64,000 nt of DNA from Dictyostelium discoideum (taxonomy: Eukaryota), in contig CM000150.2 of NCBI GenBank assembly GCA_000004695.1, forward strand, positions 4,832,001 to 4,896,000, written 5' to 3'. The stretch's first letter is position 1, and every line of letters starts with the position of its first letter. The position numbers and the translations under genes were made by a program. The notes beneath the pieces were generated by a model. That model ran no database searches, was not told the DNA's origin, and worked only from the letters and a program-made list of their open reading frames with translations. Positions 25,327 to 28,262 of the stretch are shown one piece after another.

Positions 25327-28262
25327 TTATTCACTATTACTAATTATTTTACACATTGAACATCCATAACAAAATTCTTCACCAGAAATATGTTTTTCAC
25401 TTCCTTCACACTTACATTGAGGTAATTGAGTTTTTGGGATTTGCGCAACATGATTTACATTTCTATGACATTCAACACAGAAATGAGAGTTACCCCAACA
25501 AAAGAAAGCAGAGATACGACAACAATATTTACATTTGTACTCTATAAACTCTTTTCCATGGATTTTACAATTTTCATTACCACTTGAACTACAACCTCCA
25601 CAAACCAATTCTTCAGGTTTATGCTCACCAGCAATTCTATTTTCGTCAGCAATTGCACAAACCTTTTCACCACCAAAATAGGGTTTCTTACATTTGAAAC
25701 ACATAAAGTAAGAGAATCTATCCATAACATAACCTTCTTTATTATTATACCACTTTGAGAGAGGATCATCAAAGTCTACATCTTTCTCAACACCAAATAA
25801 TGATAGCCTATTCAAAGCTTTAACCTTTATAAAACCATAAAGTTCATTAATTGGTGTGAGATATTTCTCCAAACAAGGATGTTGCATATTTTGTGAACAT
25901 AGCGCACATTTTACAAATCCAAAACTTATTCTTGAACTTGTCCATCTCTTTTTTAAAACTGATGAACAACATTTCTTATGAAATATATGACCACACTCTA
26001 ATTGGATACATGGTTCTGATGATAATGAATCCGTCCAACAAATATTACAATAATCATTTGATTTCTGATTTGTTTTATATTTATTTATTAAATTTGGTTT
26101 TTTTATTATATCATTATTTATTATTGTATTTACTGTTGTACTTGTAGTAGTAGTGGTCGTTGTAGTAGTAGTATTTGTAGGTAATGGAGTTGGAGTATCA
26201 TAATCATTATTATTACAATCTGGATGAATACATGGTAAACATTTAGTTTCGTCTAAAATTCCAAGACATTCATGACCACATCTTAATATTTTTTGACATG
26301 ATTTAATTGATTTTGAAATACATTCATCATTTGAACAACAATTATTATTAATATTATTTCTATTTATAGTTGTTGTAGTGGTAGTTGTATTATTGTTATT
26401 GGGTTTTAAAGATAATCTTGGTGAAACTATTGGAGTAATTGGACAAATTGCAACCCTACAAAATCTACAATGTTTTGAAGAATTATAAATTTGAAATTGA
26501 GCACATGTATAACCTAAATGATAAGGATGAATTTTACATTCTGTACAAAATACACAAGAACATTGAGGACATCTAAATCTAAATTTCCTTTTATGTTCAA
26601 TTGATTCTCTACTTAATTGTTTACCATTTTCATCATATTCTATAGTTTGATCATTTGATTTGATTGAACCATTTTTATTACTATTTAAACTACTTAAAGG
26701 TATGATAACCTTTTCCATCACTAAATTACAACAAGGACATTGAATATATGAGTCCTTATTTCTAGAGATCGCTTGATCCAATGAAGCATCATCATATATT
26801 GAATACTCTTCATCAGTTAATACTTGTTTAATATCATATACTGATAATGATATCTTACATGATTTACATTTTATCTTTGAAACTCTCTTTTCATCAATCC
26901 TTTTCTTTATAAAATTATATAAACATTTTTTACAATAAATATGTGTACACTTTTTTTTTTTTTATAAAAAAAAAAAAAAAAAAACCATTAATTAGTATTT
27001 TATAAATTTATAAATAATAATAATAATAATAATTTAATACAAACATCTAAAAATATAACTTTTTCAATATCTGTTATTATATTTAAACAATCTATACATT
27101 TTATAAGCAATTGATCATTATTACTACCATTGTTATTATCACTACTAGTATCGTTATTAAGTTTAGATTGTTCTATTATTAATTGAGAATTAATTAATTT
27201 ATTAATTTTATCTAAATCATTAGAATTGTTATCAGATGATGTGATAGAGGTATCAGTTGATGTTGAAAGGGATGATGATCCTGATGAAAATGGTGAACTA
27301 ATTGTATAGGTATCAACAATTGGTACATTATCATCTTCTCTAATAATTAAACCAAGTGGTGGATTTGAAATTAGCATTCTTTCCATCCTTGAGTTTATTG
27401 TTGAGGATGATGATGATGATGATGATGTCAATATATCTGCTTTTAAGAATCCCAAACCATTCATTCCAAATAAATCCAATGTATTTGGTTTTATAAATTC
27501 ATTTGATTTTTTTTTATTATCTTTATTCTTATTAATATTATTATTTCTTTTATTTTTTTTATTTTTATTATTATCTTTTTTATTTTTATTTTCACTATTA
27601 TTATTATTATTATTATTATTATTATTATTGTTATTATTATTATTATTATTATTATTATTATTATTATTATTATTATTATTATTATTATTATTATTATTAT
27701 TATTATTATTATTATTATTATTATTATTATTAATGTTATTTTTATTATTATTCGAGTTTAATATTGCTGTTTCATTAGTTTTGAAAAATGTATTTACAAA
27801 CCAATTGTTTGTTAAAGAGAATTGGCCATTATTATTGTTATTATTATTGTCGTTGTTTTCTTTATCGCTAGTATATTCTTCTTCGTCGTCATCGTCATCT
27901 TCTTCCGAGTTATAATCCTCGCTTGTTTCCTCGGAATTACTTATACTATTATCATTATCGCTACTACTATTGCTACTACTATTACTATTACTATTGCTAT
28001 CATCACTTTCATCGCTATCAACTATTTTGTTTTTGTTATTATTATTATTATTTTTATTAATATTATTACTATTGTTGTTTTTGTTGGTATTTTCAACAAT
28101 TCTATTGAATGGGTATCTATTTAACCCATAACTTTTCCCATTATTATTGTCTAAATGATGATGATGATGATGTAAATCCCCAATTAAATCTTGCTCAAAA
28201 ATTCCATTACTTTCATCTTTATGAAAATGGTTATGATTAAATAAAAATGATTTAAAATCCAT
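25327..28262 (-). CDS. Putative E3 ubiquitin ligase of about 941 aa. It has an N-terminal N/H/S/D-rich low-complexity region, an RBR-like RING1 plus IBR, further Cys-rich segments, and a C-terminal MYCBP2-type RING plus tandem-cysteine (RCR) domain. Proposed exons are join(27060..28262, 25327..26949).
   Basis: The downstream exon (open frame back to a TAA at 26962..26964, with no ATG before LVMEKV) begins ...CTHIYCKKCLYNFIKKR..CKSC and lacks the first Cys pair of a RING. The upstream ORF (ATG 28262, 420 aa) ends ...IKCIDCLNIITDIEK. Joining at a phase-0 site (donor GTTATA at 27059, acceptor AAAAAG at 26951..26950) yields C-x2-C-x9-C-x-H-x2-C-x2-C-x21-C-x2-C, a complete C3HC4 RING. An IBR-like segment follows (CPCC...RCPQCSCVFCTECKIHPYHLGYTC). 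The C-terminal 250 aa (YCNICWTDSLSSEPCIQLECGHIFHKKCCSSVLKKRWTSSRISFGFVKCALC...GYVMDRFSYFMCFKCKKPYFGGEKVCAIADE...EYKCKYCCRISAFFCWGNSHFCVECH...) aligns residue by residue with the human MYCBP2 RING-TC module. Confidence 0.78.
27595..27732. repeat. (ATT)n/(AAT)n microsatellite of about 45 units, encoding poly-Asn on the minus strand inside the E3-ligase gene's N-terminal region
   Basis: Near-perfect tta/att repeats seen directly. The antisense poly-L ORF is an artefact. Confidence 0.95.

Follow-up and report, generated by a model that had tools for sequence, protein, structure and literature searches.

Can a complete RING-Cys-relay (RCR) ubiquitin ligase be carried by a compact protein of an amoeba? 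The searchable literature treats the RCR chemistry as a property of MYCBP2 alone, studied almost only in neurons. The question is raised by a gene at 25327..28262 on the minus strand of a 64-kb stretch of the Dictyostelium discoideum genome (GenBank contig CM000150.2, positions 4,832,001 to 4,896,000), called the window here. All coordinates are those of the window, and every feature of the gene lies on the minus strand.

We consider it likely that this gene encodes an active transthiolating RCR E3 ligase, one that combines the RCR cassette with an RBR-type RING1-IBR without RING2/Rcat. Judged by its sequence conservation, the combination of RING1-IBR, a zinc element and the RCR is a real and conserved one and a variant of a known ligase class.

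The RCR module and the elements in front of it

The C-terminal part of the window protein is 45.6% identical to MYCBP2 (PAM/Highwire/RPM-1; PDB 5O6C and 6T7F) over 239 positions. Common to the two are a RING-H2, a helical linker, a tandem-cysteine (TC) domain, both relay Cys, the triad His and Glu and the aligned zinc ligands. This bears out the MYCBP2-type RCR module that the initial annotation had placed at the C-terminus. As in the RCR class, the TC zinc-binding domain fold is present and a cross-brace RING stands immediately N-terminal of it.

The RCR RING (25897..26049) is of the C3H2C3 type with the ligands C707, C710, C725, H727, H730, C733, C754 and C757, and aligns to MYCBP2 C4390..C4437/4440. 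Its ligands are invariant in 119–120 homologues, its AlphaFold2 (AF2) pLDDT is 97, and sub-threshold Pfam RING matches fall at amino acids (aa) 705–756. The linker from this RING to the TC domain (aa 758–820, 25708..25896) aligns to the MYCBP2 linker helices and contains a long helix in the AF2 model, H722-749 in the numbering of P0001. P0001 is the D. discoideum allele KAM9960087.1, which served for the modelling and matches the window protein with 94–100% identity across the zinc-finger and TC domains. The TC domain itself (aa 821–946) occupies 25330..25707.

Both relay Cys stand at the MYCBP2 positions when the alignment is checked, just as had been predicted. The upstream one, C837 (codon 25657..25659), lies in the mediator loop YFGGEKVC, corresponds to C4520 and is Cys in 120/120 homologues. 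The downstream catalytic one, C890 (codon 25498..25500), lies in FFCWG, corresponds to C4572 and is Cys in 117/118. The triad His, H901 (codon 25465..25467; H4583), is kept in 116/118 homologues, and the triad Glu, E853 (codon 25609..25611; E4534), belongs to a column of 62 Glu, 39 Asp and 15 His. All 120 homologues keep Y830 and G833 of this loop, and G832 is Gly in 90/120.

The MYCBP2 residue numbers were counted on the 5o6c alignment with the GGEARC Cys set to 4520, by which the FFCFG Cys becomes 4572 and fits the published pair. The MYCBP2 esterification site is a Cys-His-Glu triad (PMC9527308).

Ahead of the RCR module stands an RBR-type front end, also in line with the initial annotation. 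RING1 (26857..27098, spanning the intron) is a C3HC4 RING of the E2-binding type with the ligands C389, C392, C407, H409, C412, C415, C434 and C437. The IBR that follows it (26503..26739) is a C6HC domain with C477, C480, C533, C536, C541, C544, H550 and C555 and an insert of roughly 40 aa. The zinc ligands of both are near-invariant, and in a profile alignment the IBR runs colinear with that of ARIH2. In the PDB, the solved structures closest to the RING1-IBR are those of HOIL-1, RNF216 and ARIH2.

Of the domains initially predicted, Pfam confirms only the RING in the window protein. The IBR scores 19.2 bits there, under the 24.3 cut-off, yet is significant (E<=0.001) in 43/77 family members with the best E of 6.9e-11. 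The RBR ligases HOIL-1/RBCK1, ARIH2, RNF216, HOIP and parkin all have the RING1-IBR in common with the window protein; however, a RING2/Rcat with a catalytic Cys, looked for after the IBR, is not present in the latter. Hence the RBR-like front and the RCR were rightly named at the outset, but the absence of RING2/Rcat and a third conserved zinc element at aa 567–651 were missed.

This pre-RING zinc element (26215..26469) lies between the IBR and the RCR RING and follows the pattern C567-x2-C570 .. C611-x4-C616-x7-C624-x5-C630-G-H632-x-C634-x-G..C643-x2-C646-x4-C651, which is interrupted by an N/T-rich loop in Dictyostelium. The family keeps it almost unchanged, and the model gives it pLDDT of 94–95. 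The MYCBP2 orthologues also have it (CRFC..VCx4C..CGHxCxG..CLPC), just upstream of the crystallised RCR, and the crystallised MYCBP2 constructs leave it out. By BLASTP, window aa 611–941 match residues 4368–4668 of a 4673-aa PHR protein with E=7e-78. Thus, the common cassette consists of the zinc element, the RING and the TC domain.

The coding sequence is split. Two long open reading frames (ORFs), 28262..27000 and 26781..25327, are joined in frame by removal of an intron at 26950..27044, which has 95 nt, GT..AG ends and 6% GC; the DNA is AT-rich, with 23% GC in the window and 25% in the coding sequence. By the ORF and splice reading, exon 1 (27045..28262, aa 1–406) runs from the start codon through the low complexity and a predicted helix to the first two zinc ligands of RING1, and exon 2 (25327..26949) carries aa 407–946 and the TAA stop codon.

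RING1 is the domain that the intron divides. The splice junction ..EKVIFLD|CTHIYCKKC.. completes its C3HC4 pattern by restoring the motif FLD|C-T-H-IY-C-KK-C, and the identical exon junction is found in the annotated orthologues of D. discoideum (KAM9960087.1), D. citrinum and D. purpureum. The spliced product has 946 aa and replaces the 941 aa given earlier.

Relation to MYCBP2 and spread of the family

Is the window gene a MYCBP2 orthologue? Its product has 946 aa and MYCBP2 about 4600 aa, and it lacks the RCC1-like, PHR, filamin and APC10 domains and the B-box, as only RING matches are returned by Pfam. By contrast, a true PHR protein (P0267) returns PHR at 3e-83, RCC1 and ANAPC10. Where the window protein has RING1-IBR, MYCBP2 has a B-box-type finger (CDHCGNLCxDCDRFLHLHR..) and a linker. 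The set that marks the PHR family, namely RCC1-like, two PHR and APC10/DOC domains with an upstream B-box-type finger, is absent from the window protein. Judged by these features, the gene is not a MYCBP2 orthologue and would belong to a separate, old and compact lineage.

A homologue search with aa 385–946 as the query gave 128 proteins, 120 of them listed, and most of the listed ones span 95–100% of the query from RING1-IBR to RCR. They come from dictyostelids (Dictyostelium, Polysphondylium, Acytostelium and Heterostelium) and other Amoebozoa (Planoprotostelium and Vannella). Beyond Amoebozoa, they come from Spongospora of Rhizaria, several species of the ciliate Paramecium, a pavlovalean haptophyte and two ferns with chromosome-scale contigs. 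In all, over 90 homologues from these groups have the architecture in common. The notion of a novel amoebozoan one-off architecture is thus given up. All five elements are present in 59/120 by motif counting, the remainder being mostly fragments. The orthologues of D. purpureum (F0ZCM3) and Polysphondylium violaceum (A0A8J4PPP8) are 59% and 54% identical to the window protein, respectively, with the architecture and the exon junction alike and the low-complexity lengths varied.

An exhaustive phmmer search with the TC query (aa 765–946) gave 1328 cluster representatives at E<=1e-3, of which 709 also pass E<=1e-10 and 92 pass E<=1e-30. Nearly all of the best 150 of the 1328 have a TC match that reaches the C-terminus or comes within a few residues of it. 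These 150 matches listed include 18 giants (2000 aa or more), with RING1/IBR motifs in 0/18 and the zinc element in 15/18, and RING1 and/or IBR motifs occur in 63/83 proteins of 430–999 aa. In a rough neighbour-joining tree of RCR domains, which is indicative only, the giants form one clade, the hybrids fall outside it and the window gene lies within the dictyostelid group.

The relatives carry diverse modules at their N-termini. About 30% of them (~37/120, among P0005-P0054) start with a UBZ4-type ubiquitin-binding finger (CPxC..HxxxC), whose profile matches WRNIP1 at 9.5e-7, RAD18 at 7e-6 and also the UBZ domains of Pol kappa and FAAP20. Further relatives have RanBP-type (NZF) fingers or C2 domains. 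These N-terminal modules hint at ubiquitin- or membrane-directed targeting in the family. In the window protein, Pfam and the family alignment found no ubiquitin-binding finger, and the Dictyostelium-genus proteins have about 380 aa of low complexity where the relatives have the UBZ4, RanBP or C2 domains.

RCR cassettes occur in still other settings. P0120 of Meganyctiphanes norvegica (630 aa) is a metazoan RCR protein of non-PHR type, with a coiled coil, Cys-rich repeats, the pre-RING zinc element and the RCR; the repeats look NFX1-like. Hence the cassettes are found in more than two architectures.

D. discoideum has a second RCR-bearing gene, DDB_G0284853, which has been called a 'mycBP2/Highwire-like protein' (PMC6743453). 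Its TC active-site peptide is CFGTTHFCDTCHD and that of the window gene is CWGNSHFCVECHR. The D. purpureum counterpart, DICPUDRAFT_41102, is 52% identical to the human RCR and 43–48% to the hybrids. It is thus closer to the human RCR than to the hybrids, and the two RCR lineages therefore appear to have separated before the amoebae/animals split. Within the 64-kb window, a second RCR gene was sought and not found.

A second dictyostelid hybrid paralogue was also observed, as P0041 (Polysphondylium violaceum CYY_006895, 751 aa) and P0288, which has a C2 domain at the N-terminus ahead of RING1-IBR-RCR. Counted with the MYCBP2-like gene, this paralogue points to three or more RCR genes in each dictyostelid genome.

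The initial annotation had held the RCR to be tied to metazoan giants, which is contradicted by DDB_G0284853 and by names already in use outside animals. In UniRef, F0ZCM3 and A0A8J4PPP8 bear the name 'RCR-type E3 ubiquitin transferase', and relatives are called 'MYCBP2' by JGI, both being machine annotation only. No publication on the RING1-IBR-RCR family was found in the literature on the RCR or TC domain with Dictyostelium, protists, ciliates or ferns. As far as found, the family is therefore catalogued by machines and apparently undescribed in papers, so that the initial reservation about an already catalogued and characterised family holds in its first half and not in its second.

In a review of how the ubiquitin system evolved, D. 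discoideum is credited with HECT and 8 RBR ligases and with no RCR (PMC11354881). Inventories of E3 ligases may include the RING1-IBR-RCR proteins under 'RBR' or plain 'RING'.

Proposed relay and its alternatives

How would such a protein act? The homology, the fold, the conserved catalytic and zinc-binding residues and the conserved architecture are established above, and from the sequence we infer E2 binding, both transthiolation steps, the ester chemistry and the role of RING1-IBR. An E2~ubiquitin (E2~Ub) thioester would dock at the RCR RING (aa 707–757) and hand the ubiquitin to C837 on the glycine-containing mediator loop. The ubiquitin would then be relayed intramolecularly from C837 to C890. 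Its discharge, aided by H901 and E853, would most likely be onto a Ser/Thr hydroxyl as the substrate nucleophile, forming an ester bond. RING1-IBR may be an accessory unit that binds E2~Ub or ubiquitin and so serves in regulation or in the targeting of ubiquitinated substrates, and the low-complexity N-terminus may be a genus-specific disordered spacer or interaction region.

Several points weigh against this reading. A second, RBR-type RING is present, and either RING may feed the relay. The AF2 confidence of the TC domain is moderate, with pLDDT of 72–85. Moreover, the two residues presumed to form the hydrophobic pocket for the Thr methyl in MYCBP2 are substituted in the alignment, F4586 by V904 (Gln in 64 and Ala in 28 of the family) and F4573 by W891 (Trp in 98/118). 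The pocket substitutions make the Thr preference uncertain.

Could the gene or its activity be illusory? It is hardly credible that a low-complexity/RING-fragment ORF and an IBR-RCR ORF belong to two neighbouring genes that were misjoined. The exon join was read from the sequence only, but RING1 is complete only after splicing, three annotated orthologues share the junction, the intron has its low GC and GT..AG ends, and transcriptome assemblies of many species show RING1-IBR-RCR within one ORF. Very improbable as well is an ordinary RING E3 or a pseudo-enzyme, in which the TC domain would be a zinc scaffold and both Cys structural. In its favor, the evidence for the relay is of sequence and fold, and Pfam finds RING fingers only, whereas both Cys, the triad His and the mediator-loop Gly are kept across supergroups. 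Catalytic positions kept at 117–120 of about 120 are not those of a decaying active site. A different feed is conceivable but rather unlikely, in which RING1-IBR would be the main dock of E2~Ub in the open conformation and load the TC Cys, with the TC domain replacing the missing Rcat and the RCR RING being secondary or regulatory, or else both RINGs would load one relay. RING1-IBR is retained in most compact members with its zinc ligands near-invariant and, as no Rcat comes after the IBR, would need another acceptor Cys if catalytic.

That feed has parallels among the RBR ligases: HOIL-1, RNF216 and ARIH2 use RING1-IBR for E2~Ub/Ub transthiolation complexes according to the PDB titles, and HOIL-1 is an ester-forming E3 (PMC9527308). 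However, the RCR RING is conserved more than RING1 (top-residue frequency of 0.63 vs 0.40) with 8/8 ligands invariant, the MYCBP2 RCR module functions without RING1-IBR, and the IBR is kept apart from the RCR RING by the zinc element and some 45 disordered residues. Moreover, the closed E2~Ub conformation is reportedly required by the RCR and not by RBRs (bioRxiv 10.1101/2025.09.05.674436), so it is not evident that one docking mode could take the place of the other. Possible, though not favored, is an intact relay with an acceptor other than Thr, such as Ser, Lys, a non-protein hydroxyl or amine of sugar or lipid, or ubiquitin hydroxyls. This would suit the V904 position, which is Gln or Ala in most of the family, and the Trp of the F4573 column. 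It would also suit the N-terminal UBZ4- or RanBP/NZF-type fingers of many relatives, as in HOIL-1, an esterifier of ubiquitin chains and other hydroxyls. It is opposed by the conserved Cys-His-Glu triad and by the lack of such a finger in the window protein, and the pocket residues are presumed ones.

Set against these alternatives, the window protein is probably an active RCR ligase as its sequence predicts, and a widespread architectural variant available in a tractable model organism. The full RCR cassette is found in a 946-aa protein of Dictyostelium, which is haploid and allows knock-outs, and in many protists and ferns. This raises the questions whether the relay and the Ser/Thr esterification are ancestral to eukaryotes, what role the conserved pre-RING zinc element has, and whether an RBR front end can cooperate with a non-Rcat catalytic domain.

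A bolder view, which we hold to be doubtful, is that the RCR cassette would be an ancient pan-eukaryotic module. Its commonest non-animal form would be a composite of the RBR front and the RCR back, with both RINGs acting on one Cys relay, and MYCBP2 would be a derived, animal-expanded branch. The RINGs would then be distinct E2~Ub docks, open versus closed, and RING1-IBR would load the TC Cys or sense ubiquitin allosterically. Given the UBZ/NZF fingers in many relatives, the ancestral task may, by analogy with HOIL-1, have been to modify ubiquitin chains or ubiquitinated cargo through ester links. If true, the two RINGs on one relay would define a new mechanistic subclass of transthiolating E3.

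N-terminal region and neighbourhood of the gene

The low complexity of exon 1 extends over about 340–380 aa and is rich in N, S, D, H and K. The very N-terminus, MDFKSFLF.., is kept in the D. citrinum and D. purpureum orthologues, and residues 1–297 of the allele KAM9960087.1 have AF2 pLDDT <50. An AAT-repeat tract at 27514..27752, detected by Tandem Repeats Finder and seen in the alignment, encodes a poly-Asn run at about aa 171–250, including about 62 consecutive Asn.

KAM9960087.1, the nearest of the matches, among which the reference-strain protein did not turn up, has 904 aa and differs from the window protein mainly in repeat lengths. The structured domains are 94–100% identical, the inter-domain linker 89% and the low-complexity N-terminus 82%. 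The poly-Asn lengths of the two are about 40 residues apart; thus, the coding microsatellite is polymorphic.

On either side, at 24951..25010 and 28274..28331, the gene is bordered by homopolymer A/T tracts of 58–60 nt, as is typical for intergenic DNA in Dictyostelium. The neighbour genes are unrelated to the ligase. On the plus strand are a SNAP-like protein (21881..22750), an NPC1-like sterol-sensing protein (31341..34613), a Med23 fragment (38084..39193) and a protein kinase (59890..62529). On the minus strand is a bicarbonate-transporter family protein (10234..12540). The downstream neighbour, also on the minus strand (24092..24685), encodes a proline-rich protein of 197 aa in which Pfam finds a WH2 actin-binding motif (2.4e-10); a 45-nt repeat, present there in 4.2 copies, encodes KAPPPVASKPAPPSF.

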